From the IMG/VR virus record IMGVR_UViG_3300008339_000021, positions 26,206 through 90,205 of that record: a DNA stretch of 64,000 nt. One strand, written 5' to 3'. Source of the stretch: a virus. Position 1 is the first letter of the stretch. Each line of letters begins with the position of its first letter. Shown piece after piece: positions 2-21,600 of the stretch. Under the pieces are notes generated by a model. It searched no databases. It saw only the letters and a list, made by a program, of their open reading frames with translations, and was not told where the DNA came from. The position numbers and the translations under genes are program-made.

Positions 2-1285
2 TGGCATGTCCATTTTTTGCAAATAAATTTGACTATTAACAGCAACACCAGCACTGAATTTGTTTACCATGAAAAAACTATAACCCTCTTTTACACCAGA
101 GTCATAAGTATAGATCATAGACAAATCATCAGCAAAATTTGTATTAGATATTAATTCAGATTTACGTTCTACAATACCAAAGCTTCCACCTGTAATAGGT
201 AATAAGACAGGTTCAGTACTTGTACTAAGTCTATCATTTAGCCTTAGTAGATCATTCATTTTTTGTTTTTGTGTATTCTTTATTTTATTTAGGATATCTT
301 GTCTCTCTTGTTCACCATACAAGTTACCTTCTGCAATACCTTCTTTAATTTCTCTTGCAGCTAATGTCTCAGCAGGTATTAATGTATATAAGAAACCAGA
401 TCTATTTCCTAAATATAATTTGCCACCTTGATTAACAACTGGTCTAATGTACTGGTATACAATTCTACCACCTGTTTCTACAATATTACTATTCTCATCA
501 AATCTAATTGGATTACCTTTTGCATCAGAGATGATGGCAATATTAATATCATAAGTTCTATTCTTACTTAAGAAAGTCTTATCATAGTTAGTTAAATCAT
601 CAGGATTCAAATCTCTAATGTTCTGAGCTCTAAGCATGATTGCTTTGTCCCCTAACATTACATTATCATTTATATCCTTTTTCTTAGCTTGTACTACTGC
701 AGTTTTAACTACTTCAAAAAATAATTTTTTATCCTGGTCTTCTTGATTTCTTTCCTCCTCCGTCATCTTATCAGGATTTTTTGCAATAGCAACATTATCA
801 GATGTTTTATCTGGATAATCTACTTTTGCTTTTTCCTGCACAGCTGACCAATTTGGTTGTGCATTATTATCATTATTTTGTACTACATTCTTAGAAGTCT
901 TATTGCTCTCTTTAATTTTTTTATCAACGTCTTTCTTTGTTTTTGTAGTAGTTTTTGGAGTAACAAACTTTAATACATTTTTAGGATCTTCAAATTCCAA
1001 TGATAAGTCTTGTAAATAGTCAAAACTTAAACCAGCATCTTGTCTTAAATACTTTTTAATTTCAAGATCATTCTTAACTAAATCTAATATATCAGGAACA
1101 GCTTGTGCATAAAGAAGACCATTTGGTTCATCTTTAAATTCTTCATAGATCTCTCTAATGAATTTATCTAATGCTTTATTATCAAATTTACCTAGTTTAG
1201 GATCATTCATCCTATCAAGTATTTCTCCACGGACTATTGTATATAAAGCACTTATATCATTTTCAGTATAGAGTTGACAAGCCAT
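2..1285 (-). CDS. Giant virion cargo-type protein, N-terminal part (runs off the left edge; absent from the ORF track)
   Basis: ATG at 1285 lies 2 nt after the TAG of the upstream gene. Read by hand, the frame is open for 428 codons to the window edge (MACQLYTENDISALYTIVRGEILDRMNDPK...). Function inferred from position in the giant-gene block. Confidence 0.85.
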   Translation of the reverse strand, partial: MACQLYTENDISALYTIVRGEILDRMNDPKLGKFDNKALDKFIREIYEEFKDEPNGLLYAQAVPDILDLVKNDLEIKKYLRQDAGLSFDYLQDLSLEFEDPKNVLKFVTPKTTTKTKKDVDKKIKESNKTSKNVVQNNDNNAQPNWSAVQEKAKVDYPDKTSDNVAIAKNPDKMTEEERNQEDQDKKLFFEVVKTAVVQAKKKDINDNVMLGDKAIMLRAQNIRDLNPDDLTNYDKTFLSKNRTYDINIAIISDAKGNPIRFDENSNIVETGGRIVYQYIRPVVNQGGKLYLGNRSGFLYTLIPAETLAAREIKEGIAEGNLYGEQERQDILNKIKNTQKQKMNDLLRLNDRLSTSTEPVLLPITGGSFGIVERKSELISNTNFADDLSMIYTYDSGVKEGYSFFMVNKFSAGVAVNSQIYLQKMDMP

Positions 1286-1287
1286 TT

Positions 1288-4200
1288 CTATTTTGGTTTA
1301 CAATTATTAATATTATCATCTTTACTCTTATTCTTCAATGCGGCAAGTCTATCTTTTTTAGACATGCTGGCTGCATTTTGTTTTGCCTTTTCAATTAGTT
1401 CAGGATTGTCAGCAAAATCTTTAAGACTGCTTTTTGAAATTTCAGAGTTTTCTTTTTCTTCTGGTGTAGGTTCCATAATTTCTTCTTCTACTTTTAATGC
1501 TTCTTCAGTAGTTTTAGTAAACCCTGCTTTTATCTGAGTTTCAGTAAATGTTTTTTTCTTAGGTTTTCCATTTTTTACATTTTCAACCTGATTGATTACA
1601 ATCTTACCGTCACCTTTAGATTTAACAACAACTACCTCATTTTCTGTAATTCCAAAGATAGGTTTTTTGCTAATAAGATAGTCACCTTCAGCAATGTTTT
1701 CCTCAGATGTGCTTAGCTTTAATGAATTCTTTCTAATCTGGTATACATTTTCTACAAGGTCTGCAAACTGTATATCTGTTTCTGCTGTAATAGCAACTAT
1801 GGCATCAGTATAAGCTGTTTCTAAATCTTCAAGTTTCTCAGCAGATTTGATTCTGTCAAGTATATTTTTGAATTCTTCAGAAGTTAATGATACAAGTTCT
1901 GGGAATACATTATCTACAAAGTTTCTTTTTAATGCATCAAGTTCATCTTCAATTGGATCTTTTGTTGGTGTTGATGCCTTTTTTAAAGCAGCTAGTTGTC
2001 TATCAAATTCAGCATTGATTTTATCAAAATCATCTTTAGATTTTCTGTATACATTTTTTAAATCTTTTATTTTTAACTCAAGTTTTTCTAAATCCTTAAA
2101 AGGTTTGATATCTCGAACAGGGACAGCTCCTAAAAAATCTAATTTATCATATACCCTACTTTTAGCTTTATTAAAAAACCAATCATCACTTTCTGTTTTT
2201 CCTTTTTCAAAATTTTCTGTTAATTCTGGACTTTGATATAACCTACTATTTCTTTCAGAATCTGCAATTTGTTTAAACCTATTATTATACTCTTTTTCTA
2301 ATTCTTCAATTTTATCAAATCCTTCTTTAATTTCATTTTTTATTTCTTCTATTGAAAATGGTGTAGTATCAAATATTGTTTTAAATCTTTTTTCTAATTC
2401 TTTTAGTCTTCTTTTTTCTATATCAGCTTCCTCAGCTTTTATATCTTTAGGTGCTTTTTCAAGTTTTGCCAACTCAGTTTCTAACTGTTTTTTCTTAGCA
2501 AGTAGTTGTTCATATTGAGGAGAAGTAGCTACCATATCACCAACAGAGATCATACCTCCATTAGGAATATCAGCTAACTTTTTATTTACTTCAGCTATTT
2601 TCTTTTTTAGTTTTTTAACTTCAGTTGACTTTTGTTCTTCTGTAAGTTGTGGCTCCTTTGTTTCTTGTCCAACATTTTCTGGTTTAAGATTGTCAGGAAG
2701 ATTAGGAAGCTTCATTACCACACCATACTCAGCTAGTTTTGCATCATCAATTGGTTCTAAAGGAACTGTTTTTGCACGTTCTAATTCTTCTACTTTATTT
2801 TCTAATTCTTTTATTTTATTAGCATCTGGCTTGCTTGATTTTTCTATTGATAGTATAGTATTTTTTAAATCTCTAATAACTGGACCATTAACAACTTTAG
2901 CTGCTGACTCTGCAGAAAGAATATTACCATCCATATCTGTAGTAATTGATATAGGAAGAATAGAAATACTTTTTGCTAACTCACCTGTCATATTATATAA
3001 GAGAGCTCTATAGATAGACTGTTGTATTCTATATGTAAGTTTTTTATTGAACTTACTGTCATCATTAAAGTTGGTCCAGTTTTCTGGTTTACCAGTTTTA
3101 ATATCAATAATTTTAAGATCTCCCGTCTCAGTATCAAATGCTACTAAGTCCATTGCACCTACTAAACCTGAGTCAAGTAAAGTAGGATCATATATTATTA
3201 CATCATCAGATAAGATTTTATATTTACCATCTATTACTGAGTCTTGTAATTCAGTTATAATACCATACTCCCCAAACAAATTGTCATAAGCTTGTTGTGA
3301 CATCTTAGCTGGCTTTTCTGGTTTTATAAATCCTCCATCTTTATCAGTTCTAAATGCAACTCTAGTCATGTTGTCTATTGTGTTTCCAGCAATAGTTGAT
3401 TCATCATTAGCAACATCTTTTACAACTGCAATTAATGTAGCTTCAGTAAAATTATTAGTTAAAGCATTTCTAATAATGTCAAGCTTTCTTTGACTTTTTA
3501 ACTGAGCAAGTTTACCATCTTTTACAGTATATTCAAGAAATGACATGAATCTATTAAGTCTTTCAGCATCTGATTCTATGTCAGTATCATTTACAAGATC
3601 TCTAAATGGTATTAGCAATTGACCACCTTTTTGGACTTTGCCTTCCATATAAGGTTCCTTAATTGCTTCATACAAATAAGGATCTTTATTGGTCATTTTA
3701 TTTTCTATCTCTTCAGTAAGTTTAGTAACCCTCATAGGTTTACCATCTACACCTGGAAACTCATAACCAACTGTATTGCCTTCAGCATCTAGAATTCTTG
3801 AGACACCGTTTTGTTTATTTTTTACCATCTCTTCAAAAATTCTGAAGACACGGTTTGTATTATCTTTTGGTTTATATATTGATCTTAGATAAGTTAAATA
3901 TTTTTGTAATTCAGAAATATCATTTTTAATAGCATTTCTATCATTATTAGTAAGAGTATCACCATTATCATACTTGTTTCTATCATACATGCTCTGCAGC
4001 TTATCTCTCATAACTCTTAATTGAGTAAGCCCATATTCTGTAATTGATTTAGTAAGTGGTAGATACTTTATTTTAGGTAAAGCTGATTCTTCATCAATTG
4101 GTCTTTCATTGTATGCCTTAATAATATCTTTTTGTTCTGGTCTTTCAAGCCAGTTGTTTCTTATTAATTCATATCTAGTTGGGTCAATTCTTCTGAAGTC

Positions 4201-7200
4201 TGCAGGTTTTCCTAAACCTTCTGGAGCAGGAGCTACAAGATAAGCATCAAATGCAACTTCAAGTTCATTTCTTAAATCATCTGGTAAATCATTCCAAGTT
4301 GCATTTAAGTCAACCTCTTGTCTAGATTCTTTTTTAGGAGCTTGTGTTGTAACAGGTTTTGTTTGTGCCGGAGCTTCTGTTAATTGACCTTTTAATTTAT
4401 TAATGAAAGCATTATATCTTTCATTTGTCTTTTTTACTTGCTCTTGATAATCTTTCCATGCATCAGTTGTTTCAATAGGTGGAACAGCTTCTTGTTGTAA
4501 GTCTTCAGTTTCCTGTTCTATTTTAGCTTGTGCAATTTTATCTAATAATATTTGTTGCAAACCAAACTTAACTAAGGTTGCTCTTTGTCTATCTTCTACA
4601 GATGCACCAGATTTTTTAGTTGATTTAAAGAATTTACTACTTTCTTCTGGATTATTTTGTATTGCAAGCTCAGCTAATTCTGTAAAATTCTCAGGCACAA
4701 TATTTTGTTGTGCCATTGTTTCATATAAGTCAAATAATGATGATACATCATTTGCATCTTCAACTAATTTTAAAACAGAATTAAGATCTTTAATACCATC
4801 TTCAATTTCTTTTTTACTTCTAGGTGCAGGTGGTATTTCTTTTTGCATCCAGGCTTCTTTATTTTCACCTGTTGTTGCTAATAAGTTTTCTTCAAACTGT
4901 ACTTCAAGTTTTTCAAGTTGTCTATCTTTTCTTTCTTGTAGTTGTGAAATTCTAAGTTGTAGCTCTGCATTTTTTGCAGTCTCAGTTACAACTCCTTCTA
5001 TTTCTTTTAGTGTTTGGTATCTCTCCAGTGTTTCCATATATCTGTCATATGCCAAACTACCTTCAGGAACTACTAAACCTTTTCTTTCATCATAGAATTC
5101 TTTTGGTGGAATACCTTGATCTCTCCATAGAAGGAAGTCATTTCCCTCCATAAATATTCCTCGGTTTGCTAAAAAATTTAACAAACCATTATCTTCAATT
5201 TGTGATAACTCTTGTGTAGCTATCTCTCTATAGTAATCTCCTTTTTTAAGCCAGAGATCTGTCATCCATTTTTCATTACGGTAGTAAACATCTAAGAAAC
5301 CTTTTGGGTCATTCATTAGATTAATTATATCTACCATTTCTCTAGACTCATCATTAAGTTTATAAAAGTCTAGAACTAACTCAAATGAGTCATCTATATT
5401 TTCTGTAAAGAGATAATCATCTGGTTTTCCAGAAATTGTTTTTAATAAATTCTTATACTGGTCTTCTAGATTTTCAAGTATTTTAGTTTCTATCTCTTCA
5501 TTTTTTGGTCCAAATCTATCTTCTAAGTATTGTTCTACTTCTTGATCTGTAACTTCTTCTCCTTCTTCTTTATCTTGTTGTAAGATTGATTTAGCTCTAT
5601 TAAAATATCTATCTCTATGATAGTACTCACTAAACTCTTGGTATGCTTCAGAATATTTTTCTAGAGCTTCTGCTTCTTTTAATTTGTCCTTAGCCATTTG
5701 TTTTGACTCAGGATCACCCACAGCAATAAGATTATTAGCTTCATTTTTTAATAGTCCAATCTCATTTCTCATTTCTTCTGGGCGAAGAATAATATCAGAT
5801 TGTCTTTTAGTCATAGATTGTAATGGTCTTTTCTCATAAAACTTGTTCATGATTCCAACCATTCTTTTTCTTACATCATCAAAAACTTCATTATAGAAAA
5901 CAGCAGATTTAATACCATAATTCCAAGTATGATGCATTATATATGCTTGTTCATAGTCTTCACTATCTTTAGGTATTTTGTTGAGATCAATTGGATTAGG
6001 ATATACTTTATTATAGAAGTCCATTCTTTTTTGTATATCTCTTGCTTGAGTTACTAAATCACTAATTCTTGCTTTGTATTTATTAATATCTTCTCCAGCT
6101 AATTTTGGAAAAGCTTCTTTAAACTCATCATTAGTCATGTCCTTATAGCTTTCTACAGCATCTAAGTACATATCTAAAACTCCATAGTCATTAAGCATCA
6201 TAAAATGTTGAATCAAAGATTCTGATTCAGCATCCATTACTTCTTTTTTATTTCCTGAATTTTGAACTTTTGCTAATATGTCTTGAGTACCTCCATTAAA
6301 GAGTCGGCTGTTAAGCATTTCTTCAACACCAAACCCATTCATTTGATTAACAAGCTCATCTACTATTTTTGACTTTTCTGTTTTATATTCCTCAAATGTT
6401 TTAGGGTCAAATATTTGATTTGCTTTTTCATACAAATAAGTCATGGATTTATTTAATCCACCTGCTAATGCACCCATAGCAAATCCAGAAGCAAATGTTG
6501 AAAATCCACCAGCTCCTAGTTCTTGAGAATAATATGAAAGAGGTGTTGTACCTTTTCCAAATACAGCTTTACTTATAAGATTTTTTCTAACTGGGTTACT
6601 ATAAAATGTGTCTTTATAATATTTTTCATTTGCTGAAGCAATTGTTTCTTGCAAAGATTCTTGAATACCCTCAGTTAAATTTGTTTTAAGATAACCAACT
6701 GTACCCCATACTGATTTATGTAAAGGTTCTGTTTTCCATTTATTCCACCAAGTTTTAAATCCTCTTTCAGCAAATTTCCATTCATTCTTAGCAACATCAA
6801 AACCTATAGTACCTAACTCTCCAAATCTACCACCACCAACAGTTTTCCAGTCAAGCATTTTTTGTCTTAATACTCCTTGAGCACCTACTCTAGGATTAAG
6901 TATATTATCAAATGCTAGTTTATTTGAGAAGTAAATAATACCAGCATTCATTGCAGAAGTTTCATATGCAGCCTGTTTTGCTTGAGCTACAATATCTTGC
7001 ATCTCTTCATTATTAGGATTTCTGCCAAATTTAATTTGGTAATCTTTATAGATATCTCCAATTAAATTATTATAGACCATACCAGATTCAAGTCTGGCTT
7101 CTGCTAATGCTAAGTTTATATTTCTAAAATCTCTATAGGCAGCTCCTGCAGTTTTTAAATACAGACCTGCAGATTTCATATAGCCAGTAAAGTCATCTGT

Positions 7201-8145
7201 AGAATTTAATATAGAATAGTAATTATCAGTCAAGTTACTTAATGGATTAAGAACTCTACCAACACCTGACTGCAAACCTCTTTGTATTCTACCTATACCA
7301 TTAGCTTTATTCCAAGCTTCTCTAACTTTATTTATATCTTTTAATTCATCAAGTTTTTGAGCATAGGTAGCTATTCCATCAAATGATTTTCCAGCTTGGT
7401 ATTCTTTCCATAGTAAGTTAGCTGCTTTAGGTGCAATAGCTCTAGCTCCAATTAATCCTCCAACAGCTGCTCCTACAAAGTTTTCACCCATAGCAGTTGC
7501 CATAATACCAATTGTATAACCAAGATTGTTTGTTAGATTATTAACAAATGAACCTAAGTTATTTTTAGATGAGTATGTTAAAGCTGATAGTTTAGCATGC
7601 TCTTGAGCTATTCTTGCATCTTCTCCAAAAAAATCTCCTTCATTAATTAACTTTCCTGTACTTGCATATACACTTTTTATTCCTGTTCCAATCATAGGAA
7701 AAAAAGTTTGAGATAATGTTCTATACATATCTCCAAAGAAATTAGTATTTCTATTGAGTATAGCTTCATTATCTCTTAATGGATGGAACTCTATTTTACC
7801 AGCTTCTTGAATCCCAGAGTATCTATCATAAAAAGTTCCAGTAGGACCTGAATTATAAGAATATATTTTTGCCCATTCATTTTTGTCTTCTTGATCTCTA
7901 ACAGTTGCATCATGCCATTCTTGCATAGCAGCAATGTTAGCCTTTGGATCAAAATTTTTAGGACTACCTTTAGGAACTTGAGACGGTAATGGTCCAGGAG
8001 AGATTCCAATAAATCTCTCTTTTACTTGTATAGGATTAGGTGAAGAACCAGCCATACCCATATCTGTTTGAGGTGGCATAGGAACTGAACCTGCATATTC
8101 TGCATTTACTCCAGACTGAAAGCTATTTACATTAGTATCCTCCAT
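1288..8145 (-). CDS. Giant putative ejected/cargo protein (2285 aa) with Gly/Ala hydrophobic segments and a PD-(D/E)xK nuclease-like domain
   Basis: Long ORF. Hydrophobic segments TIGIMATAMGENFVGAAVGGLIGARAIA and FSTFASGFAMGALAGGL; coiled coils; motif GAMDLVAFD..LKIIDIKTG..YRIQQSIY at about 2990-3160. Confidence 0.75.
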   Translation of the reverse strand: MEDTNVNSFQSGVNAEYAGSVPMPPQTDMGMAGSSPNPIQVKERFIGISPGPLPSQVPKGSPKNFDPKANIAAMQEWHDATVRDQEDKNEWAKIYSYNSGPTGTFYDRYSGIQEAGKIEFHPLRDNEAILNRNTNFFGDMYRTLSQTFFPMIGTGIKSVYASTGKLINEGDFFGEDARIAQEHAKLSALTYSSKNNLGSFVNNLTNNLGYTIGIMATAMGENFVGAAVGGLIGARAIAPKAANLLWKEYQAGKSFDGIATYAQKLDELKDINKVREAWNKANGIGRIQRGLQSGVGRVLNPLSNLTDNYYSILNSTDDFTGYMKSAGLYLKTAGAAYRDFRNINLALAEARLESGMVYNNLIGDIYKDYQIKFGRNPNNEEMQDIVAQAKQAAYETSAMNAGIIYFSNKLAFDNILNPRVGAQGVLRQKMLDWKTVGGGRFGELGTIGFDVAKNEWKFAERGFKTWWNKWKTEPLHKSVWGTVGYLKTNLTEGIQESLQETIASANEKYYKDTFYSNPVRKNLISKAVFGKGTTPLSYYSQELGAGGFSTFASGFAMGALAGGLNKSMTYLYEKANQIFDPKTFEEYKTEKSKIVDELVNQMNGFGVEEMLNSRLFNGGTQDILAKVQNSGNKKEVMDAESESLIQHFMMLNDYGVLDMYLDAVESYKDMTNDEFKEAFPKLAGEDINKYKARISDLVTQARDIQKRMDFYNKVYPNPIDLNKIPKDSEDYEQAYIMHHTWNYGIKSAVFYNEVFDDVRKRMVGIMNKFYEKRPLQSMTKRQSDIILRPEEMRNEIGLLKNEANNLIAVGDPESKQMAKDKLKEAEALEKYSEAYQEFSEYYHRDRYFNRAKSILQQDKEEGEEVTDQEVEQYLEDRFGPKNEEIETKILENLEDQYKNLLKTISGKPDDYLFTENIDDSFELVLDFYKLNDESREMVDIINLMNDPKGFLDVYYRNEKWMTDLWLKKGDYYREIATQELSQIEDNGLLNFLANRGIFMEGNDFLLWRDQGIPPKEFYDERKGLVVPEGSLAYDRYMETLERYQTLKEIEGVVTETAKNAELQLRISQLQERKDRQLEKLEVQFEENLLATTGENKEAWMQKEIPPAPRSKKEIEDGIKDLNSVLKLVEDANDVSSLFDLYETMAQQNIVPENFTELAELAIQNNPEESSKFFKSTKKSGASVEDRQRATLVKFGLQQILLDKIAQAKIEQETEDLQQEAVPPIETTDAWKDYQEQVKKTNERYNAFINKLKGQLTEAPAQTKPVTTQAPKKESRQEVDLNATWNDLPDDLRNELEVAFDAYLVAPAPEGLGKPADFRRIDPTRYELIRNNWLERPEQKDIIKAYNERPIDEESALPKIKYLPLTKSITEYGLTQLRVMRDKLQSMYDRNKYDNGDTLTNNDRNAIKNDISELQKYLTYLRSIYKPKDNTNRVFRIFEEMVKNKQNGVSRILDAEGNTVGYEFPGVDGKPMRVTKLTEEIENKMTNKDPYLYEAIKEPYMEGKVQKGGQLLIPFRDLVNDTDIESDAERLNRFMSFLEYTVKDGKLAQLKSQRKLDIIRNALTNNFTEATLIAVVKDVANDESTIAGNTIDNMTRVAFRTDKDGGFIKPEKPAKMSQQAYDNLFGEYGIITELQDSVIDGKYKILSDDVIIYDPTLLDSGLVGAMDLVAFDTETGDLKIIDIKTGKPENWTNFNDDSKFNKKLTYRIQQSIYRALLYNMTGELAKSISILPISITTDMDGNILSAESAAKVVNGPVIRDLKNTILSIEKSSKPDANKIKELENKVEELERAKTVPLEPIDDAKLAEYGVVMKLPNLPDNLKPENVGQETKEPQLTEEQKSTEVKKLKKKIAEVNKKLADIPNGGMISVGDMVATSPQYEQLLAKKKQLETELAKLEKAPKDIKAEEADIEKRRLKELEKRFKTIFDTTPFSIEEIKNEIKEGFDKIEELEKEYNNRFKQIADSERNSRLYQSPELTENFEKGKTESDDWFFNKAKSRVYDKLDFLGAVPVRDIKPFKDLEKLELKIKDLKNVYRKSKDDFDKINAEFDRQLAALKKASTPTKDPIEDELDALKRNFVDNVFPELVSLTSEEFKNILDRIKSAEKLEDLETAYTDAIVAITAETDIQFADLVENVYQIRKNSLKLSTSEENIAEGDYLISKKPIFGITENEVVVVKSKGDGKIVINQVENVKNGKPKKKTFTETQIKAGFTKTTEEALKVEEEIMEPTPEEKENSEISKSSLKDFADNPELIEKAKQNAASMSKKDRLAALKNKSKDDNINNCKPK

Positions 8146-11100
8146 ACTCTCTTCTTTGCTGATTCATTAATTGTTGAATTTTTGGACCATCAAGATCACT
8201 TGAACTTGCATCACCTGTAAAGAATCTTTCTCTATTATATCTTAAGTTAGCACCTTGATTTGATAATGGGGCAACAAGAGTAACTGTTTTAGAATCTTGA
8301 CCAGGACCCATATATTGTTGATAGCTTGTAGTTACAACTATCTTAGATGGATCTACTGGATCTATTTTATAGTTAAGTGATATACCAGGTAATGTAGGAT
8401 CAGTATATGTAACACCTTTAGATCCTGCTTTTTCAATTCTAATTTGTTCTGCTGACTTAAATGAATTTTTATACATACTAACATTTGCCAAATTTTTAGC
8501 ATCTGTTATAATGCTTATACCATTTTTAAGTATGTCATTATATTGGTCTTCACTCATAATACCATTACCATCTGAGTCTGGTTTAAATTTCTTCAAATAG
8601 TCTTCAGGTAATTTAAAATTAATTGCTGCTTTAGTTACATCTTCTCCACCAAATGGAGATACAGCAACTTGAAATCTTTTTAAATCCATTCCTTTTGAGC
8701 CAGTTCTTGGATTAAAATCAGCCCATATTGCAGACCATATTTCATTATTTTTTGCTGGGTCATCAATGTTTTCAAATTTATCAGCTACTCCACCAAATGA
8801 TACATAGTTTGATCCATCACTTGTTTGTAAATCTAAATTTCTAACTACCCCTCTAAGTTGTAAATAATGATCATATGTAGGTGAACGTACTCCAGGTTCA
8901 ACAGTAATACCTGCTCCACCAGTAGTATATAATCCAGTACCAAATTCAGTAAGTGATACTGGTTGATCTAATCCTAATATATCACTTGTTAACATACTAT
9001 TTTCAGCTAACAAATCATATGCTGCTAACATCTCATCATATTCTTCTGATGTAGAATAGTTATGTCCTGTCCAATGAGAATTACCTTGTGCTAATCTAGT
9101 TCCATCTTCTTCATCAGTTCCCCATATACTATTATAAATCCAATCCCATGCACCACCACCAAGATACCCTACACCTGTTGCAAGAGCTCCTGTAAGATAT
9201 GCAGCAGGTACAGTTACTACTTCTTCAGGTAAAGCAACTTGTGGACCAAGTTGTCCAGCTACTGCTACTGCTGTTGATGTAGCTAGACCACCTGTATTCA
9301 TAGCATTAATAAAACCTGCCATTGACATTCCATTATTTAGAATTATATCTTCTGGAAAATCTCTATGAACATTTGCAATAAATGTCTTTTTGTCAACCAT
9401 ATTAAGTTGGTCATCAAATAATTGATTGGCATACATGAAACCTTGAGCTCTAAGCTTATTAGCAGTTTCATTTGCAATGTCTTCTTTATTTTTGATTGCT
9501 GCTAGTTTGTATGCAGCATAATCATCTAAACTGTGACTTAATGTAATTAAGTTTTTTACTTTACTACTGTTTCTTATATAATAATCATCTTTCTTCCTAT
9601 CAATTACATTTAACATTTTTTTAGTCATGTCTGTAATCATGTTTGGAGAAAAGTCAGTCTTTAGACTTGCTTTTGCTAATCCTGCAAGTTTTAATTTAGA
9701 AGCATCACCTTGTGCAACAAGATCATCTCCCATTTCTGCTGCTGCTTCTCTTTCTAACTCTGTAACATATGTACCTTCCTGAATCATTATATTTAATATA
9801 TCAGTTGGTATATCTTTTGTTGTTACATATCTTTTACCTGTTTTTGGATTAATTTCACCTGTACCTTCTTTAAATTTATCTCCATTTTCTTTTATCCACC
9901 TTAATACAGGTTCTATATTAAAACTATTTAAGTTTTTATTATCTATAATTTCTAATATTTCTGCATTAGAAATTATTCCCTCTTCTTGCATTTCTGCAAG
10001 TACACTTACCATTGTTTGTTTAGCAGCTTCAGCATCACCAGTATATAAACCATCTATTGTATTAGACAAAGCCATTGGATCATTTGATGGTGTTTTAGTC
10101 ATCATTTCAGCAACTCTTTCAATGTTTGCTAACTCTGGCTTTATTTTTAATTCATTAGTTTCTGGATCAATATCATAAAGTCCTGATTCAGCTTTTGCTT
10201 TATATGTTGCTTTATCCATATCAAGCTGATGCTTAAAGAGTGCAACATCTTTTTGTGCAGCAGCTCTTTGTTGAATAAGTGAAGAGTCATACTCATATTT
10301 CTGTCTTTGTACTGAGAATGGATTTGCTTCATATGATACCTCTCCATGAAGATCTGCCCAATTCATAGCTGCTTGATTGAGATCTGCTAATAGTAAATTA
10401 GAAGCTGTAACTGCATCAACTCTCATTCTTAACAAATCCATGTCATCCATATTAAGAGCACTACCTCCTTGAGTTGTCATAGTCCGGTTAAGATCTCCAT
10501 CTAACATTACTAAGTCATTCTCAGCTTGTTTAAGCATTTCAGAAATTTGAGCATTAGCTTCTTTATATTGTTCTAATGAAGTTTGTGTAGTTTCAATATC
10601 TGTTCCATCTGCAATAGACTTCTCCATTCTAGTGATCATCTTATCATTAGCCATCTTACGGCTTAATAAATCATTCTTAGTAATGAGGGTTTGATTCCTC
10701 ATTACTTTTAGTGTTCTATTTAGATAATCTTTCTCAGCTAACTCAGCATTACCTCCATATTCAGGCCTATCTTTATTTGATGCTACTGTATCTTTTCTAT
10801 CAAGATAAGCTTGTGTTACATACATTTCTTTTACTTTAGGATCTTTACCTAAGACAGAATAAAATGTACTTTGTAAAGGGGCAATGGCTTGCTGTCCATT
10901 TTTTTCAGTAACAATCCAATCACCTTGTGGAGTAACTCTTTTAATATCAATCTTCATTTCTGCAGCTAACTCCAATGCTTTCTTCTCTACATTAACATAT
11001 GGAGTATATTTTACATCACCGAAAGATGGTAGTTGCTCATATGGCAAAGCTTTAAATTCTTGTACTTTGTAATCAATTGCTCTTAAACCACCATCCCAAT

Positions 11101-11509
11101 ATTCAGAGTTTATTTTTTCATCAGTATTATATCTCTTACCTTCACCTAATGATCTTTCAAAACCTACATTTTTTGTGAAGGCCATATCTTTCATTAAACT
11201 GGCATCTTCATAAAAAGGTCTGAATAACTGTGTAGCTTGTTGAACATTTTGCTCAAGTGATAGATCTAAACCAGTAATTCTTTTTAAATCAAAGTCAATT
11301 CTTTTGAAAGTATTATCTCTTTTATTTATACTTTCATCATGAGTTAGCGGAGCATTTAATATCTGACCATATATATTATTTAATCTACTCCAGTTTTGAT
11401 CATACTGTGTTTGTTTTAGTTGTAAAACATTTGCAGTAAAATTAAAATCAGGTTGATAAGCCTGGTATTCTGGGATAAATGTTGTGACTCCTGATGGATA
11501 TGTTGCCAT
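8132..11509 (-). CDS. Putative ejected/cargo protein (1125 aa) with a hydrophobic hairpin
   Basis: Long, largely helical, Cys-free ORF. Segment GGLATSTAVAVAG...PAAYLTGALATGVGYLGGGAW is compatible with membrane insertion. Position matches the crAss-like cargo block. Confidence 0.65.
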   Translation of the reverse strand: MATYPSGVTTFIPEYQAYQPDFNFTANVLQLKQTQYDQNWSRLNNIYGQILNAPLTHDESINKRDNTFKRIDFDLKRITGLDLSLEQNVQQATQLFRPFYEDASLMKDMAFTKNVGFERSLGEGKRYNTDEKINSEYWDGGLRAIDYKVQEFKALPYEQLPSFGDVKYTPYVNVEKKALELAAEMKIDIKRVTPQGDWIVTEKNGQQAIAPLQSTFYSVLGKDPKVKEMYVTQAYLDRKDTVASNKDRPEYGGNAELAEKDYLNRTLKVMRNQTLITKNDLLSRKMANDKMITRMEKSIADGTDIETTQTSLEQYKEANAQISEMLKQAENDLVMLDGDLNRTMTTQGGSALNMDDMDLLRMRVDAVTASNLLLADLNQAAMNWADLHGEVSYEANPFSVQRQKYEYDSSLIQQRAAAQKDVALFKHQLDMDKATYKAKAESGLYDIDPETNELKIKPELANIERVAEMMTKTPSNDPMALSNTIDGLYTGDAEAAKQTMVSVLAEMQEEGIISNAEILEIIDNKNLNSFNIEPVLRWIKENGDKFKEGTGEINPKTGKRYVTTKDIPTDILNIMIQEGTYVTELEREAAAEMGDDLVAQGDASKLKLAGLAKASLKTDFSPNMITDMTKKMLNVIDRKKDDYYIRNSSKVKNLITLSHSLDDYAAYKLAAIKNKEDIANETANKLRAQGFMYANQLFDDQLNMVDKKTFIANVHRDFPEDIILNNGMSMAGFINAMNTGGLATSTAVAVAGQLGPQVALPEEVVTVPAAYLTGALATGVGYLGGGAWDWIYNSIWGTDEEDGTRLAQGNSHWTGHNYSTSEEYDEMLAAYDLLAENSMLTSDILGLDQPVSLTEFGTGLYTTGGAGITVEPGVRSPTYDHYLQLRGVVRNLDLQTSDGSNYVSFGGVADKFENIDDPAKNNEIWSAIWADFNPRTGSKGMDLKRFQVAVSPFGGEDVTKAAINFKLPEDYLKKFKPDSDGNGIMSEDQYNDILKNGISIITDAKNLANVSMYKNSFKSAEQIRIEKAGSKGVTYTDPTLPGISLNYKIDPVDPSKIVVTTSYQQYMGPGQDSKTVTLVAPLSNQGANLRYNRERFFTGDASSSDLDGPKIQQLMNQQRREYGGY

Positions 11510-14010: not shown

Positions 14011-17000
14011 TTATATAAATTTTATTTGACCACCTGCAGCAAGAATCTGACCTATCTCTTCTTGAGTTAAATCATATACACCACCTTGACGGAATTTAAG
14101 TTCCCCACCTTTCTTTACAAAGGCAGCTTCACCTACTACATAGTTAAATCCTGTAGATCCTGCTCCTTGTCCTTTTGACATATTTCTTTGACTTAAACCA
14201 CTATAACCACCTCTATAATCTAGTTGATTAACTGGTTCTCTACTATCAGAAGGACTTCTTGATGCTAAATAATTTGTATTGTAACTATCATTTAGACCAG
14301 CAGAAATTCCTCTGATACCCGCACCTAAGAACTGTCCAGCATTTGCTATCTTATTTGTATCTAGTGTACGTGCCTTATTTATATCATAAGTAACTGAGAA
14401 ATCTTCTGGTGTTGTATTTTGTAATGCAGAAGGTTTATAGTTAGGATCATAACAAGGACTATTTGGATTTTGTACTTCAAATTCTGTACATGGTCCTGTG
14501 ATAGCTTGATTAGGATTTGTTTCTAAATTACTACTATTAGGATTAAAAGGACCTGTTCCACTAAACTGTCCACCAGGATTAAACTCAGGAACATATCCTC
14601 CAAATTCCATATAGTTTGAAGCTCCTCCGTAAATTCTTTTAGGAACCCATTTTTTTAATATATAACTATATTTAGCAGGTGTACCATCAGGGAATGTATT
14701 ATTATTCATTCCATCATTAATAATACCTTGTTCAGTAAAAGCTTTTCTTGCATTAGCCTCTTGTTTATCTGCTTCCCAAGTACCTGTCTTATCATTGTAG
14801 TCTACCGGTGTCCCGTCTGCAAACTGATAACCAGAAGCACCAGTAGTATTGAATATTACACCTTGATTTTTTTGTGCTTGTTCTTTACGTTGAGCTCCTG
14901 ATGTAGTTTCTCTATTCCATTCTTCATTCCAGTCTGGATTACCAGTTTGATTAGTTGTATTAGTAGTCTGAGTTGTGCCTGTATTAGTAGCCCCTGTTGT
15001 GCCTGTATTAGTAGTTTGTGTAGTACCTGTATTATTTACTTGAGTATCAGTGGCTGCAGGTTGAGTTGTAGTTCCAGTTGCTGGTGTTGAAGTAGTTGAT
15101 TGTTCAGGTTCAGTTACTGTTTCTTTACTAGATCTTCTTTGTATTCTTTTTTGTTGTCTACGTTCTCTTGGACTCATTTCTTCTTCAACTGTATTAGTTG
15201 ATGTTGAAGTACCAGTTTGAGTTTCACGAGGATTTGGAGTTTGTAAATAATCAGGTAAACCATTACCATCAGTATCAGCGTTATATCCAGAATAACCAGG
15301 TCCAACTGCTTCAGGATTATATCCTTCTGCAATATTATCTGCAGTTGTATTAGCAGAAGCACCACCAGCTGTTGTACCTGCATTAGGATTATTTGGATCA
15401 ACCCATCTACCTGTAAGTGTCATTGTTTTTTTACCTGACCACCAAGGACCTTTCTCAAACTTATAATCATACATATAACCAGCTTGTGGCTGTGTTGCTG
15501 TACCATCAGCATTTGTACCAGCTACAGGAACCATACCTTGTAATTGACCTTGTGGTTGGAATATAGCACCACTTGCTGTTCTTGCAGGACCTTGTTGTGA
15601 CATCCAAGTAAAATCATAATTACCTCCAGTAGCAGGATTATATTTAAATGGTGAAAACATATTTCTTATCTGTTGACCAATTGTTGGTGCAGTAGGATAA
15701 CTATAACCACCAGTCATTGGATAACCTGCTCCATAACCATAATTATAATTTCGAGTTGTGGTAGTTTCTGTTGATGCAGGTTGTGATGTAGTACCTAATT
15801 TTCTTTGAAGAATTTGTTGATATACTGCATCATTAGGATTAGCTTCATACTTCATAAATGTAGATGCATCTGTCTTAGTCCTATTCATGTAGTCATTATA
15901 CTCAGCAAGAGCTTCTTGTTCAGCTTTTTGTTTAAGCCATGCATCATAATCATTTGTAGTTACTTGACTATTATTAATACCATCATATTTATATAGACCA
16001 CCCATTCTATACATAAAAGGATCATCTACATTTTTAGACTGTATATCATTATTATCATATGCTACTATTGGAGAAATTGGTAACTCATCTCCACCATATA
16101 CAAATTTAGTTAATGTATTAGGATCCATTTGAGATGTATTTACCATTCCACCTTGTTGATAACCTAAATAGTCAGCTACTTTAGGAGCTATTTGAGTTGC
16201 AAGTCCATATGCAGGAAATGTCATACCCAATGTAAAATCGGAAACATTATTGGCTACATCTTGTGCAGCTCGTTTTCCAGCATACTGTGCACCAAGTATT
16301 TTTGCTCTATCATATCCATATTTCTTCTTTATTTCTTCCCACCATTGGGTGTACGTCGTACTAAGAATAGGGTTTTTCATTAAATCTGGGACACTACCCA
16401 ATTTATTCAACATGTCAAACTGTTGTTCCTCATCCGCTGTTAAAAACTCTAGATTTTTGTCATATATTAATTGTTCAAGTTCAGGATTAACCTCAAAAGA
16501 CTTATTTGCATCTGAAGAATTTTTTGAGTTTTGTTCTTGTAGGTAATTGTCACCAAAATAATTATCATAAGAATAAAAATCATATTCAAGTTCATCTTTA
16601 AGAGCTTTAACATATTTGTTTTCTGGTGTACCATATGTTTCTTCATATAGCTTATTCAGATTAGATATTATTGCTTCTTTTCCAGCTGTATCTGAACTAT
16701 TATATTTTTGTTTTATTCTATTCATTTCAGCTTGATAGTCAGCTTCAGAATAAGTTGGCGATGCAACTCCAGTAGCAGGAGCACTGGCAAAACTTTTAGG
16801 TGTAGTTGTAGTTGTAGTTTTAGCTTTAGGTGTGCTTGCTGCAAACATTTTATTTATCTCAGCTTGTACTTGTGCATAGTTTTCACCTAATGCTGCTTTT
16901 CTTGCAGCACCACTACCATACTCTCCCCTAAGTGTTTTCTGAACTTCTTCACTTAAGTTAAATGGTATAGTTTCAGTATTAGCTCCTACAGTTTCAGTAG

Positions 17001-18636
17001 CAGCAGGTATTATTTCTGTTCCTGTAATAGGTGCTGTTTCAGTAATAGTTTCTGGCATAGGACCAGTACCTACAGATTCAGTTCCAACTACTGGTGCTGT
17101 CTCAGTAGGAATAAAATCAATTAGCTGTGTTCCAGAAGGATTTGTTTGAGTTGGCATGAAATTTTTATTTCCTGCTCCGAACATCCATGGAGCTTGAGCA
17201 GCAGCAGCTCTTCTTCTTGCTGCTTCTTCTGCTGAAATTGCTTCAACTTCATTTCCTTGTTCATCATATACCATTTCAGTTCCTTCAGGAGCAGGATTTA
17301 ATTCCATATAACCTGCATAGGGTTTAATACCACTATTTTTAAGAATTGTTGCTTCATCATTTTTAGCAGGATCTGCTGCAGCATTTAGTACTTGAGATTT
17401 TGTTCTTATAACTTCACCAGGAAATGTTCTAGTTGTATTCCAAGAAGAACCATAACCCATACCCATTGGCATATATCCATAACCAGGATTCATACCAGCT
17501 AACATAGCTGCAGGTATACCTTTAGCAGACCATTCTCTTGTGCCTTTCCACCATGGTCCTTTTTTATACTCTAAATCAATAAGTGGTCCTGTTTGACCTG
17601 ACATAGCTCCAGCAGTCATTTGAGGATTAACTATTTGAGGAGATACCACTTGAAGATAGTTTGGTAATCCCGGTACTCCAGCATATCCAGCTGCCATATC
17701 CCCAAACATGTTTTGCCAATCTCTTGCTACTCTACGAGTTTGTCTATCAGCTTGTCTTTGTTCACGTCCTCTTCTTGCTTCTGGCAAGTTTTCATAACCT
17801 GCACCATGTACTTGATTCATAGGTTGTTTAAAAATATTTGATACTGATCCTGAATAAGCTTGAAGATGATGCATTGGATTTTCTATATCTTGCTGTTCCA
17901 TCTGCATTCCCTCTTGTGCCATAGGCATCATTTGGTTATTCATTGGAGGTAAGGCACTTGTTTCTTGTTGTAACTGTTTAGTTTTATCATAAATTTCTTT
18001 TGCATAATACTCATTACCAAGATCTTTTATACCTCTTCTAAAATTATTAATGTGTGCTTGTCTTCCATTTGGAGAATCTAATATTGTAGAATTACTAGAT
18101 TCATCTTGCTGCATTCCTTCTGCAGCTTTTTTTAATCCTCTTACTATATTTTTGACAAACTTTTTCTTACCAATAGTTCCTCCTTTTCTTTCTACTGATA
18201 ATGCTTGTTCATCTTCTGCAGCTAGATCATCTTCACTTTCTTCACCAAAGTCATCCCAGCCTGTATCATCATCAGATATCCATGGTAAATCAGTATCATA
18301 GAGTGGTTTTTTAATAGGAACAATATCTTCAACTTCTGCATCTTGAGAAAGCATTTCATTCTTTGTATCATTAACATCTTGTCTATACAAAAATTCAACT
18401 ACTTTTTCTACTCTATCTAGAGCATCAAAATAACCAAGACCATATTTATCTTTTAAGGTATCAGCAATCATCTCTACATCTGTAGTCATTGTTAATTGAT
18501 CTAGTATATCTTGTTCTAAAGCTAAATCATTAACTTGCATACCGGCCTGAGCCTTTTGTAAAAACTGGGCTGTCTTATTAATATATTGTCCATTTCCTCC
18601 TGGATCTTTATATATTCTTACTTTTCTTTTGTTCAT
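14011..18636 (-). CDS. Low-complexity putative cargo protein (1541 aa) with a CW_7 (Cpl-7-type) cell-wall-binding-like motif
   Basis: Long T/G/Q/P-rich ORF. VQKTLRGEYGSGAARKAALGENYAQVQAEIN resembles the CW_7 consensus. Many xxGG motifs. Confidence 0.6.
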   Translation of the reverse strand: MNKRKVRIYKDPGGNGQYINKTAQFLQKAQAGMQVNDLALEQDILDQLTMTTDVEMIADTLKDKYGLGYFDALDRVEKVVEFLYRQDVNDTKNEMLSQDAEVEDIVPIKKPLYDTDLPWISDDDTGWDDFGEESEDDLAAEDEQALSVERKGGTIGKKKFVKNIVRGLKKAAEGMQQDESSNSTILDSPNGRQAHINNFRRGIKDLGNEYYAKEIYDKTKQLQQETSALPPMNNQMMPMAQEGMQMEQQDIENPMHHLQAYSGSVSNIFKQPMNQVHGAGYENLPEARRGREQRQADRQTRRVARDWQNMFGDMAAGYAGVPGLPNYLQVVSPQIVNPQMTAGAMSGQTGPLIDLEYKKGPWWKGTREWSAKGIPAAMLAGMNPGYGYMPMGMGYGSSWNTTRTFPGEVIRTKSQVLNAAADPAKNDEATILKNSGIKPYAGYMELNPAPEGTEMVYDEQGNEVEAISAEEAARRRAAAAQAPWMFGAGNKNFMPTQTNPSGTQLIDFIPTETAPVVGTESVGTGPMPETITETAPITGTEIIPAATETVGANTETIPFNLSEEVQKTLRGEYGSGAARKAALGENYAQVQAEINKMFAASTPKAKTTTTTTPKSFASAPATGVASPTYSEADYQAEMNRIKQKYNSSDTAGKEAIISNLNKLYEETYGTPENKYVKALKDELEYDFYSYDNYFGDNYLQEQNSKNSSDANKSFEVNPELEQLIYDKNLEFLTADEEQQFDMLNKLGSVPDLMKNPILSTTYTQWWEEIKKKYGYDRAKILGAQYAGKRAAQDVANNVSDFTLGMTFPAYGLATQIAPKVADYLGYQQGGMVNTSQMDPNTLTKFVYGGDELPISPIVAYDNNDIQSKNVDDPFMYRMGGLYKYDGINNSQVTTNDYDAWLKQKAEQEALAEYNDYMNRTKTDASTFMKYEANPNDAVYQQILQRKLGTTSQPASTETTTTRNYNYGYGAGYPMTGGYSYPTAPTIGQQIRNMFSPFKYNPATGGNYDFTWMSQQGPARTASGAIFQPQGQLQGMVPVAGTNADGTATQPQAGYMYDYKFEKGPWWSGKKTMTLTGRWVDPNNPNAGTTAGGASANTTADNIAEGYNPEAVGPGYSGYNADTDGNGLPDYLQTPNPRETQTGTSTSTNTVEEEMSPRERRQQKRIQRRSSKETVTEPEQSTTSTPATGTTTQPAATDTQVNNTGTTQTTNTGTTGATNTGTTQTTNTTNQTGNPDWNEEWNRETTSGAQRKEQAQKNQGVIFNTTGASGYQFADGTPVDYNDKTGTWEADKQEANARKAFTEQGIINDGMNNNTFPDGTPAKYSYILKKWVPKRIYGGASNYMEFGGYVPEFNPGGQFSGTGPFNPNSSNLETNPNQAITGPCTEFEVQNPNSPCYDPNYKPSALQNTTPEDFSVTYDINKARTLDTNKIANAGQFLGAGIRGISAGLNDSYNTNYLASRSPSDSREPVNQLDYRGGYSGLSQRNMSKGQGAGSTGFNYVVGEAAFVKKGGELKFRQGGVYDLTQEEIGQILAAGGQIKFI
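14956..15034. repeat. 24-bp coding tandem repeat (about 3.3 copies) encoding NTGTTQTT-like units
   Basis: tgtattagtagtctgagttgtgcc / tgtattagtagcccctgttgtgcc / tgtattagtagtttgtgtagtacc / tgtatta. Confidence 0.85.
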
Positions 18637-18696: not shown

Positions 18697-21600
18697 TTAT
18701 TCTTCAATTACTGTATAACCTTTTCTGATGTAATCTTCTATTTCTTTATCAGTTAATTCCATTTCTAAAAAGTTGGAATCCCCACCAAATTGTTTTTTAT
18801 TTGTAGTACCTTGATTCATTTGATAATTTGGATCAAATACAATTTCATCATTTATTACAGTTAAACTTACAGGTGGCATCACCCGCCCATTTTTTATTAT
18901 AATCCTTTCTCCAGAAGGCCATACTTGAGCTTTAGGATTATTATATATATACCTTCTAGCAGTTGGATAAAGATCTTTATCATCTGTAAACAGCTCATAA
19001 TCAATACCTCTATCAATTAATTGTTGTTCTGTTTCTGTAGGTATTTGACCTGCATAGTATATTCCTACAAGAGCTCCAGTTGCACCAACTGCAAGTCCAA
19101 CATTTTGAAGTTTGCTTTTAAATTTGTTTTTTTTAACTTCTAAAATTTGTCTTTCATTATATATTTCAGATGCTCTAGTTTGTAATTCTTGTATTCTTTT
19201 TTCTACTGCATTATATTCAGTTTGTGCTCCCTTTGTAAATTTATTTATAAGAGCCTCTTGTTGAGCAATTAAAGCATTATATTCATTTCTTATTAAACTT
19301 AATCTAGTATTTGCGTTTATTATTCCATTATCTATTATTGAATTAATTTTATTAAAATCATCAATAGTTGATATTTGTGAAGAAGTACTAGCTTTATTTG
19401 CTATTAAACTTTCTAATTTTTCTTTTCTTTGGAAACCTGATTTTGGAGCGGTATGATATTTCTTATATGAATATAGCATAGAGTCTACTAACTCATCAAA
19501 GTTTCCAAACAAAGATGCATATTGAGATCTTGATGCACCATATGTTGGTGTTGCTATATCTGCATCTTTTGCAATAGCTCTTATCCCCATTGTTTCAGCC
19601 ATTTCATCTAATGCAAGTTTACCTTGAGTATAGTCAGAATCAGCAATTATTAAATTTAATATATCTCGTGATTCTTTAATATTGTCAAGTTGATATTTAT
19701 ACTGTGGCAAATATTTAAGAAAAATTTCTTGTACCTGTTTAGCTTCTTCTGGAGTATATACATATGTACCACTAGTTGCCCTATTAATAGATTTAACATA
19801 TGCTTCAGGATTAGATATATCAGTTTTAATACCAATTTGTCTATGACCTATAATAGCATTTTCTGTGTCATATACATGTATAGGATTTCCTTTTCTTACT
19901 GTATTTAATCCCATTCCATTTAGTGAGCCTCCTCCAGCGGCAGGATACCATTCAGTTAATGCATTTTCTATAGTTTTAACTTTGTCAGTTGTTAGTGGTA
20001 AATTGTGCGGACTAATTTCTCTTGTGAAAGTAGTCATGTTGATATAATAGTCATTCAATGCTAATTGCATTCTAGCAGGATCATTTGCTACTCTAACTAC
20101 ATCATCACCTTTAAAACCCATTGCTATTAAAGCATCCATGTTCTTTGCAGGATCAGAAAGGTCCTCTACTTTAAATTGATGCCCTAATGTTGCTTTGTGA
20201 CCTGCTATAGATTTAATATATGCTTCTTGACCTTTAGCTACTACTGCAGGATCACCATATTCTATTAATACATCTGGTCTTACTATATGTTTTTCTTTTG
20301 ATGATTTATAACTACCCCATTTTGTTAATGGTGTTGCCTCATATGAATCTATTACTGTTTTTACTTTAGAATCAATACCATTCATAAATTCTTCAGTAGA
20401 CATATTAATTTCAATAGGCTTTCCTGTTTTAATTGATTCAATTGAAGCTTTTTGAAATTGTTCAGGATAAAATTGTCTAAACAATTCAACCTCTAAAGAA
20501 GTTTCTTCTTGTGTATTTACATCTTTTCTCCATACTGGTTTTACTGTTCCATTAGGATTTTCATGTACTATATTAAAATCTAATGTTCCTTCTTGTCCAT
20601 ATTGTGGATACACAGAATGTTGTTTGGCTGGACCATAATCTTGAACAAAAGAAAATTTATCTTTTACATTTTTATTATAAGCACTTTCACTTATAAGAAC
20701 ATCTATGTCACCAGTAATATGTGGCATACCAGCTTCAGTTACAAGAACACTTGAACCAAATACTTTTGCTCCTGGTATATCAGTTTCAACTTTTTGTTTT
20801 GAATTACTTAATGAATTAACATATTCTTGAGATATAACAGGTTCATTAGTTGAAGCATCTTTTACAACTAATTCACCATCTTGTATACTATATTTTACAT
20901 CTACTTTTGGTAACTCAACTTGAGCTTTTATTTTTTCCCCAGTGCTAAAATCTGTAACCACTTGCTCACCAGTAGTTACAGCACCTTTATATATTGAAGG
21001 TTGAGTTTGTTCTAAACCTTCTCCTGTTTTTACAAAGTCTTGTTTTATCTTACTATATTTATTTATATCTTGTTGCCTTTCATACATTTTTCTTGACTTA
21101 GGTATGAGTCGGTTTTTATCTTCAAAATAGTTTTCAAACTTTCTTTTCTTAGTATTTAATAATTTACCAAGTTCCTCCTCTCTTGCAAGTAATCCTTTTT
21201 TACTAGGATCTACAGCCCAGTCATCCGGCCAGACACTTCCAAGTTCCTTTACTAATTCATCATGTTCTTTAGCTAAAGCTTTAATCTGATTATTAAAATA
21301 ATTTACTTTATTTACTGTGTTTAATGCTTTTAATCCTTTCTTACCATAATCAGACATTAATGTTCTTAATTGATTAGGTATTTTTATTTTTGGATTTCTA
21401 GATAGAAAAGCTGCTAGGATCATAATTGGTGCTCCAGCTTGTGTAACATTTCCATCTGTCTGTTCTTCATTAGCTAGACTCAATGTTGTTGCAACTCCTC
21501 CTGCTATAATTGGCAGAGCATTAATTACATTTTTTAGTATGCTAAAGTTCTTTGGATTATTTTCCATTATATCATATAGTCTTAAAGGATATTTTTCTCC

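Follow-up and report, generated by a model that had tools for sequence, protein, structure and literature searches.

Why should giant proteins that are otherwise nearly free of cysteine (Cys) keep single Cys residues right at the ends at which two neighbouring proteins meet? This question is raised by three consecutive minus-strand genes, here named A, B and C, and by the neighbour upstream of A, here named Z, in the IMG/VR virus record IMGVR_UViG_3300008339_000021. The stretch that was analysed, referred to as the window, comprises 64,000 nucleotides (nt; positions 26,206 to 90,205 of the record) and corresponds to the right-hand 64 kb of the 90,205-bp viral record, the completeness of which is estimated at 76%. 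The window has a GC content of 32%, and its minus strand carries nearly all long open reading frames (ORFs). We found that A, B and C are kept almost free of Cys, save for one Cys at each end that faces the next protein, and we consider it likely that these residues form head-to-tail intermolecular disulfides, linking A Cys2282 to B Cys3 and B Cys3604 to C Cys3.

Lone cysteines at the ends of three giant proteins

Gene A (1288..8145, minus strand) encodes a giant putative cargo protein of 2285 amino acids (aa), the sole Cys of which, Cys2282, is the fourth residue from the C-terminus and is encoded by TGT at 1300..1302 (minus strand). Translation gives DDNINNCKPK, followed by the stop codon, as the C-terminus of A and MACQLY as the N-terminus of B, which starts with the ATG at 1283-1285 and has its Cys3 codon, also TGT, at 1277..1279 (minus strand). 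Both codons lie where an earlier reading of the window, here called the original prediction, had placed them, and its count of a single Cys in A and in the visible part of B agrees with ours. Gene B runs off the start of the window and is represented there by its first 428 codons (2..1285, minus strand). In the whole record, B has 3605 aa and its gene ends at genome position 16673; its second and last Cys is residue 3604, within the C-terminal sequence ENNPLNCM. Gene C (genome 9051-16673, outside the window, minus strand) overlaps the stop codon of B by one base and encodes a protein of 2540 aa, which begins with MFCESR and has its sole Cys at position 3. A, B and C together thus contain four Cys in 8,430 residues, at position -4 in A, at 3 and -2 in B and at 3 in C, and neither the N-terminus of A nor the C-terminus of C has one in this genome. 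The upstream neighbour Z (8132..11509, minus strand; 1125 aa) contains no Cys and marks the outer boundary of the chain, as A has no N-terminal Cys facing it.

For comparison, the 30 window ORFs of at least 150 aa contain 217 Cys in 19,201 residues, or 1.13%. Taking four Cys as given, the chance that they fall at exactly these ends is approximately 2e-12, calculated by us as 4/2285 x 2(3/3605)(2/3605) x 3/2540.

Residues 1900-2900 of B match g066 of Cellulophaga phage phi14:2, annotated as 'Catalytic RNA polymerase subunit' (24.7% identity, expect value (E) 6e-22, tblastn), and B also matches gp50 of crAss001, annotated as 'putative RNA polymerase' (23.1% identity, E 2e-14, tblastn). The DFDID motif of B (D2542, F2543, D2544, I2545, D2546) is invariant in an alignment of 21 sequences. 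Judging from these matches, B is the virion RNA polymerase (RNAP) of a crAss-like phage. By position, A appears to be the counterpart of phi14:2 g067 and crAss001 gp47, and C that of g065 and gp49; for A, the Cys pattern points to the same assignment. The gene order Z-A-B-C is found in this genome and in related loci, and the phi14:2 layout g067-g066-g065 is alike. The annotation of the phi14:2 record carries tandem mass spectrometry notes placing these three proteins in the virion, and mass spectrometry of crAss001 finds proteins of the RNAP block in the particle, according to the accessible text of that study, whose authors argue that packaged cargo must partly unfold to traverse the tail (PMC10172136). 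By analogy with these relatives, A, B and C would be packaged cargo. Domain searches added little: residues 1660-1723 of A gave a weak match to a PD-(D/E)XK nuclease (19.3 bits, below the 22-bit cut-off), residues 673-818 of B match phrog_10774, a family the function of which is not known, B also has a weak DUF120 match, and residues 2214-2240 of C match LysM (22.5 bits against a cut-off of 20.9 bits). As to the zincin-like protease domain expected in one protein of such a cargo block, HExxH strings occur in B (HEAWH) and C (HELSH), and a Pfam scan matched no peptidase family.

Conservation of the facing ends across splits and fusions

The original prediction implied that the tail and head Cys should be conserved together. 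All 56 homologs of B (3249-4232 aa; 31-100% identical to it in the first 500 residues) start with MAC and have just one Cys besides Cys3, located at -1 to -3, and the 21-sequence alignment shows no variation at M1, A2, C3 and L5. A Cys is present in the last one to eight residues of all 46 homologs of A and is the sole Cys in 45 of them; in an alignment of 30 sequences, C2282 forms an invariant column at the end of a conserved tail, with the consensus SKKDRLAALKNxSKxDNINNC, which lies within the last 80 residues of A (2206-2285; 1291..1530, minus strand). For the C family, 176 homologs were found, and the counts refer to the 120 listed. A single Cys at position 3 was seen in 102 of them, three have their sole Cys at position 4, 7 or 10 behind a probably miscalled start, eight have the head Cys plus one to three internal Cys, and seven, by appearance N-terminally truncated, have none. 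A C-terminal Cys was found in 0 of these 120 proteins.

We then compared the ends at the level of whole loci, namely 78 viral contigs with 10-kb flanks and the present genome, giving 79 loci with 74 distinct B sequences. The 78 loci were found with the 21-sequence B alignment, whereas the single 428-aa head of B gave no relative when used as query. The tail Cys of A is present in 65/65 readable cases, the head Cys of B in 68/69, the tail Cys of B in 71/71 and the head Cys of C in 68/69. In contrast, a Cys at the outer ends was seen in 0/68 C tails and in 1/62 A heads, where it lies on a doubtful N-terminal extension. The two misses concern the B head of locus L064 and the C head of locus L044; there, the expected Cys-containing heads (MVNCSLS and MACNS) directly follow the upstream stop codon and are then interrupted by a frame break. 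These breaks, soon after the start of C in L044 (20833-21700) and of B in L064 (9506-9760), could be sequencing errors or real frameshifts. In both cases, the true start was located by the terminal-Cys signature, and when these two heads are counted, a Cys is present at every readable end that faces a break. The co-conservation thus holds for the A tail (46 of 46), for the Cys pair of B (56 of 56) and for both sides of every readable break in the 79 loci.

The interior of the proteins shows the opposite pattern, with only 23 non-terminal Cys in 505,119 residues, corresponding to 0.0046% as compared to the 1.13% in ORFs of the window. The tail Cys lies one to 10 residues from the stop codon, leaving 0-9 residues beyond it, and two to six residues precede the head Cys. 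TGC is used instead of TGT in 13 of 248 terminal codons, and this unequally on the two sides of a junction, with eight cases among C heads and two among B tails.

Further information was obtained from 12 named crassviruses of three families, namely phi14:2, crAss001, DAC15, cr126_1, cr108_1, cr130_1, cr50_1, cr52_1, cr4_1, cr271_1, Carjivirus communis (p-crAssphage) and Rudgehvirus. All 16 protein-level breaks within their RNAP blocks have a Cys on both sides, whereas their 23 readable outer ends are without exception free of Cys. In phi14:2, the sole Cys of g067 is its last residue, g066 has Cys only at 3 and -2, and the sole Cys of g065 is at position 3. In crAss001, the sole Cys lies at -3 in gp47 and at position 5 in gp49, and gp50 contains three, namely Cys5, one at -9 and an internal one; DAC15 and cr126_1 show the same pattern. 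In these last three phages, the A gene lies on the strand opposite to B and C, and its lone C-terminal Cys is still kept.

Natural fusions between the genes are found in two of the families. In the Suoliviridae cr50_1, cr52_1, cr4_1 and cr130_1, A and B are fused, and a pair is kept only between the C-terminus of the fusion protein and the N-terminus of C; a Cys pair was found at none of the four fused A+B junctions, and no Cys at all near the junction of cr50_1 and cr52_1 (junctions mapped roughly by BLAST). Under translation table 11, three of these fusions contain in-frame stops, 74 in cr130_1 (L083), 37 in cr52_1 (L086) and 38 in cr4_1 (L088), which would fit the stop-codon reassignment reported for some crAss-like phages. 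In the Intestiviridae cr271_1, Carjivirus communis and Rudgehvirus jaberico, B and C are fused; here, the separate upstream protein ends with a Cys at -2, and the fused polymerase protein starts with M-x-C and has no C-terminal Cys. A+B fusions thus lack the head Cys of B and retain its tail Cys together with the head Cys of C, and the reverse is true for B+C fusions. The losses of Cys track the fusions, indicating that the residues co-vary across the breaks and not within B.

The same dependence is seen when a protein is split further. In five loci, another gene sits between B and C across 735-1837 nt, and the pattern is intact. An extra protein of 242-261 aa is encoded between B and C in L056 (19587-20315), L061 (19452-20210), L062 (8686-9444) and L064 (22038-22823) and has Cys only at position 3 and at its last residue; L037 (20710-22545) has an extra protein of 396 aa with Cys at 3 and -2, and C again starts with MAC. 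The extra protein of L037 is followed by an ORF of 197-202 aa which, as read from its sequence, resembles a GIY-YIG homing endonuclease. Residues 134-252 of the extra protein in L061 align with the C-terminal ~120 residues of a longer B in L060, L078, L063 and L054 (E 1e-17 to 5e-11), and these longer B proteins contain only the two terminal Cys. The same junction is therefore without Cys when fused and carries a pair when split.

A different kind of break is present in cr108_1, in which the polymerase gene is interrupted inside DFDID by a full-length group I intron (RF00028, 80 bits, E 1.1e-20; L084:21790-22108), the two exons being annotated as separate hypothetical proteins in the record. 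No Cys is found on either side of this break, which is mended at the RNA level and needs no link at the protein level.

Proposed linkage of the facing ends

The tail-to-head link between lone terminal Cys, as put forward in the original prediction, is well supported by the comparative evidence, that is by co-conservation and by co-variation with splits and fusions, and by a structural precedent in the Anabaena phage A-4L (A4). With regard to its chemistry, the original prediction had named a disulfide or a metal site, of which the former is favoured and the latter disfavoured. The 16-residue terminal windows contain 0-0.5% histidine (His) and no second Cys, the particles of crAss001 are rich in inter-protein disulfides (PMC10172136), and the same signature in A4 is a disulfide as seen by electron cryo-microscopy (cryo-EM). 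It had also been foreseen that further Cys in the downstream protein might account for B Cys3. Such a residue, Cys3604, does exist, but it fails to explain Cys3 as an intramolecular partner, and a Cys3-Cys3604 bond within B was rejected as each of the two Cys is lost independently in A+B and B+C fusions. Two other candidate explanations for terminal Cys were also rejected. A split intein does not agree with the presence of 0-9 residues beyond the tail Cys and two to six before the head Cys, and no Hint or intein Pfam match was obtained; lipobox and CaaX-like readings do not agree with spacing and position and found no support in Pfam.

The interface expected between the A tail and the B head is predicted, yet only at the 'weak support' level of the tool used. 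Single-sequence ESMFold2 complexes of the B head (residues 1-110) and the A tail (2206-2285), run together with three controls, scored 0.50, 0.51 and 0.51 as compared to 0.01 for the best control, with a predicted local distance difference test (pLDDT) value of 58-59 for the partner and 75 for the other chain and a contact agreement of at least 75% between runs; the output of the tool listed no contacts. The calibration comprised 78 solved complexes, of which 51 attained the mark, and 108 mismatched pairs, of which 2 did so; scores of up to 0.60 comprise only five of those solved complexes and all four passing mismatches. The score may hint at a non-covalent contact that precedes the bond.

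Based on these results, we propose the following mechanism. Once the particles have passed from the reducing cytoplasm to oxidising surroundings, a bond would form between the tail Cys of each protein and the head Cys of the next, probably preceded by a weak non-covalent docking of the tail on the head. The product would be a single covalent chain, linear and unbranched, with 8,430 residues and a mass of ~0.95 megadalton (MDa), and as the bonds lie within approximately 10 residues of the ends, this thread could pass the tail like a single polypeptide. Such a chain would fix the order of delivery and a 1:1:1 ratio, as a fused polyprotein does in other crassviruses. Cys residues that are already paired would presumably be inert to periplasmic oxidoreductases, and the links would finally be reduced in the host cytoplasm, freeing the subunits. 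We infer each of these steps, that is the formation of the bonds in crassvirus particles, the ejection as a thread and the release by reduction. According to the accessible text of a bioRxiv preprint on phi14:2 gp66, the packaged form of this protein is self-inhibited, its activation is unexplained, and the three proteins are fused in some phages; one might speculate that a redox-timed release would fit such a self-inhibited form.

A wider version of this mechanism can be formulated, which we regard as possible but rather doubtful. Throughout the Crassvirales, the RNAP and its partners would be delivered as one covalent thread of ~1 MDa, with peptide bonds between fused segments and terminal disulfides between separate ones, and reduction in the cytoplasm would set the time at which the subunits come apart and the self-inhibited polymerase becomes active. 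The disulfide would then take the place of the peptide bond in a redox-gated form and would arise anew with each further split.

Several observations weigh against head-to-tail disulfides. In no crassvirus has a disulfide joining these proteins been seen so far, and particle assembly takes place in the reducing cytoplasm. We found no thioredoxin, glutaredoxin or Erv-type oxidase in the 76%-complete record, although the Erv search was uninformative, as it matched no control genome. The predicted docking is only weak, and hhalign gave no sign of paralogy among the termini (E 0.04 and probability 1.3% for the heads of B and C, E 0.15 for the tails of A and B), which argues against a shared 'clasp' module. 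More internal Cys are present in the gut crassviruses, with 26 in cr130_1 gp79 and 15 in cr271_1 gp48, and one Cys, not a pair, lies near the approximate A+B junction in cr4_1 (Cys2180) and cr130_1 (Cys2832). Lone terminal Cys without a partner also occur in cargo-region proteins encoded upstream of the RNAP block, at -2 in gp47 of Carjivirus communis (L091:4207-6780) and at -11 in gene49 of Rudgehvirus (L092:4014-6287), the next protein containing no Cys in either case. A-4L gp26-28 gave no match at E up to 10 (phmmer) to A, B, C, Z and nine named crassvirus proteins, so that the precedent is an analogy of mechanism and not of family. The crAss001 study left gp47, gp49 and gp50 unresolved in the structure and does not mention their cysteines in its accessible text (PMC10172136), and phi14:2 gp66 was purified and crystallised in dithiothreitol or tris(2-carboxyethyl)phosphine, for which reason its structure says nothing on bonds between terminal Cys. 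The many inter-protein disulfides described for crAss001 particles in the same accessible text are located only in the tail and at the portal vertex (PMC10172136). The word 'cysteine' is absent from the available text of the gp66 preprint and of the crAss001 atlas (PMC10172136), and no description of terminal Cys in crassvirus cargo was found in full-text literature searches and in the accessible text of the papers cited.

Part of these observations could be accommodated if the terminal Cys formed bonds elsewhere, that is with a second copy of the same protein, with a protein of the portal or cargo zone or with a thiol of the host periplasm or envelope during entry. The lone Cys of p-crAssphage gp47 and Rudgehvirus gene49 would fit this explanation, as each might pair with another molecule of its own kind, and so would the many heterologous disulfides in the tail of crAss001 and the fact that heterotypic pairing is without direct evidence in crassviruses. 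We nevertheless consider this explanation unlikely, since it leaves unexplained why the Cys are restricted to ends facing a break (0/68 C tails, 1/62 A heads) and why both members of a pair are gained or lost together at splits and fusions, and since the pairing in A4 is heterotypic, from tail to head.

It is likewise improbable that the facing Cys are joined by a metal ion or cluster, comparable to a zinc hook, or by other thiol chemistry, possibly already in the reducing cytoplasm. The co-variation with splits and fusions supports a pairing of facing ends, whatever its chemistry, the compartment of assembly is reducing, no oxidase was found, and the tails are rich in aspartate and glutamate (21% of the last 16 residues), which might provide added ligands. 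However, there is one Cys per side, hardly any His in the terminal windows and no conserved second ligand, a single four-Cys site common to A, B and C is excluded as only two terminal Cys are left in phages in which one fusion has occurred, and the same signature in A4 is a disulfide.

By comparison, we give almost no weight to a nucleotide-level or translational by-product, such as coupling, a re-initiation motif or a ribosome hop from TGT to TGT that fuses the ORFs. Both junctions of this genome indeed read TGT, stop codon, ATG NNN TGT, with the Cys codons 20 nt (A/B) and 11 nt (B/C) apart. However, the A gene lies on the other strand in crAss001, DAC15 and cr126_1, another gene separates B and C in five loci with the pattern kept, the distance between tail Cys and stop codon varies from one to 10 residues, TGC replaces TGT unequally on the two sides, and the ATG two to five codons ahead of the head Cys is conserved. 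A bypass of the T4 gene 60 type was rejected for the same reason, as take-off and landing codons would not be in cis with an opposite-strand A gene or with inserted genes. Adjacency of the genes is thus not required, which excludes a translational cause. Finally, Cys suppression in ejected proteins with a few chance leftovers, documented for the ejection proteins of Schitoviridae and likewise seen in crAss cargo, accounts for the Cys-free interior but not for the invariant Cys at facing ends (56/56 B, 46/46 A, 79 loci) or the chance of ~2e-12 for this genome alone, and its probability is negligible.

Head-to-tail disulfides would be of interest for several reasons. No other phages of the human gut are as abundant as crassviruses, and the linkage would bear on how they pack and inject a protein mass of ~1 MDa that includes their own RNAP. 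A rule by which both sides of a break always carry one Cys and all other positions none makes for a concrete and cheap test, and phi14:2, crAss001 and DAC15 are available as cultured systems; for crAss001, reduced and unreduced virion samples for mass spectrometry already exist, according to the accessible text of that study (PMC10172136). If true, the linkage would account for the stoichiometry and order of cargo delivery as well as for the tolerated splits and fusions of the giant genes, and would extend a one-off cyanophage bond to a general device of podophage ejection machinery. The Cys signature could also aid the annotation of metagenomic crAss genomes, as it marks the true ends of proteins and reveals frame breaks and miscalled starts.

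Other ORFs of the window differ in their use of Cys. Four neighbouring Cys-rich ORFs at 37225-43899 (minus strand) encode proteins of 925 aa with 67 Cys (7.2%), 565 aa with 22, 180 aa with 11 and 447 aa with 15, which are probably disulfide-rich external parts of the tail or fibres. The 67 Cys in a single 925-aa ORF of the tail region indicate that the phage uses Cys freely outside the cargo. Two ORFs of the capsid region (538 aa and 421 aa) contain no Cys. The terminal rule is not followed by two further cargo ORFs, one of 1541 aa (14011-18636, minus strand) with only Cys1383 and Cys1395 and one of 2542 aa (18697-26325, minus strand) with only Cys145 and Cys156; these pairs, 11-12 residues apart, could form short intrachain loops or small binding sites.

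Comparison with known systems

The closest precedent for the proposed bonds comes from A4. According to the accessible text of the structural study, Cys1715 of gp27 is seen by cryo-EM to be joined to Cys5 of gp26 in a disulfide, and the C-terminal helix of gp27 is inserted in a cleft of gp26 (PNAS 2025, PMC12002296). In the A-4L genome, gp27 (1717 aa) has Cys1715 as its sole Cys, within the C-terminal sequence DNPCQF, and the adjacent gp26 (1114 aa), which begins with MSKHCGLE, has Cys5 as its sole Cys. As in A/B and B/C, adjacent genes for packaged ejection proteins thus combine a lone tail Cys with a lone head Cys. A4, however, belongs to a different phage family, the Saffermanviridae, and its single link joins two proteins in a pentameric pre-ejectosome ring, with no chain of three or four proteins and no RNAP. 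The bond is given there as a structural detail, and the accessible text describes neither a conserved rule nor a co-variation with splits and fusions (PMC12002296).

Within the crassviruses, phi14:2 and crAss001 have a homologous polymerase with the DFDID motif, giant neighbours on both sides and the same Cys pattern. The proteins studied here are much larger than those of phi14:2 (2285, 3605 and 2540 aa as compared to 1797, 2180 and 1421 aa), and in crAss001 the A gene is inverted. The A+B fusions of Suoliviridae and the B+C fusions of Intestiviridae contain the same modules in the same order, with a peptide bond in place of the proposed disulfide, and differ in that the Cys pair is missing at the fused junction. 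Cleavage of such polyproteins is supposed in the accessible text of the gp66 preprint; covalent continuity itself may be what selection keeps.

In Schitoviridae (N4 gp50, DEV gp71-73), Cys is strongly suppressed in the giant virion RNA polymerases and in the proteins ejected with them, as it is in the crassvirus set. In the accessible text on these phages, a Cys content of 0.00075% is given for the homologs of the virion RNAP as compared to 0.865% for the proteome, with passage through the periplasm suggested as the reason (PMC11445570), and we found 0.0046% for non-terminal Cys. The N4-like proteins are described there as fully Cys-free (PMC11445570), whereas the crassvirus set keeps exactly one Cys per facing end. 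The suppression of Cys in ejected proteins has already been described; what is new here is that every facing end retains a single Cys.

A functional parallel is also found outside the phages. In AB toxins, a single interchain disulfide holds two chains together during membrane translocation, and its reduction in the cytosol releases the active part. There is no homology between the two systems, and the links proposed here are strictly end-to-end, serial and located inside a virus particle. Taken together, these comparisons suggest that the crassvirus cargo might carry a serial, order-wide and split-coupled version of the bond that has been seen once in a cyanophage.

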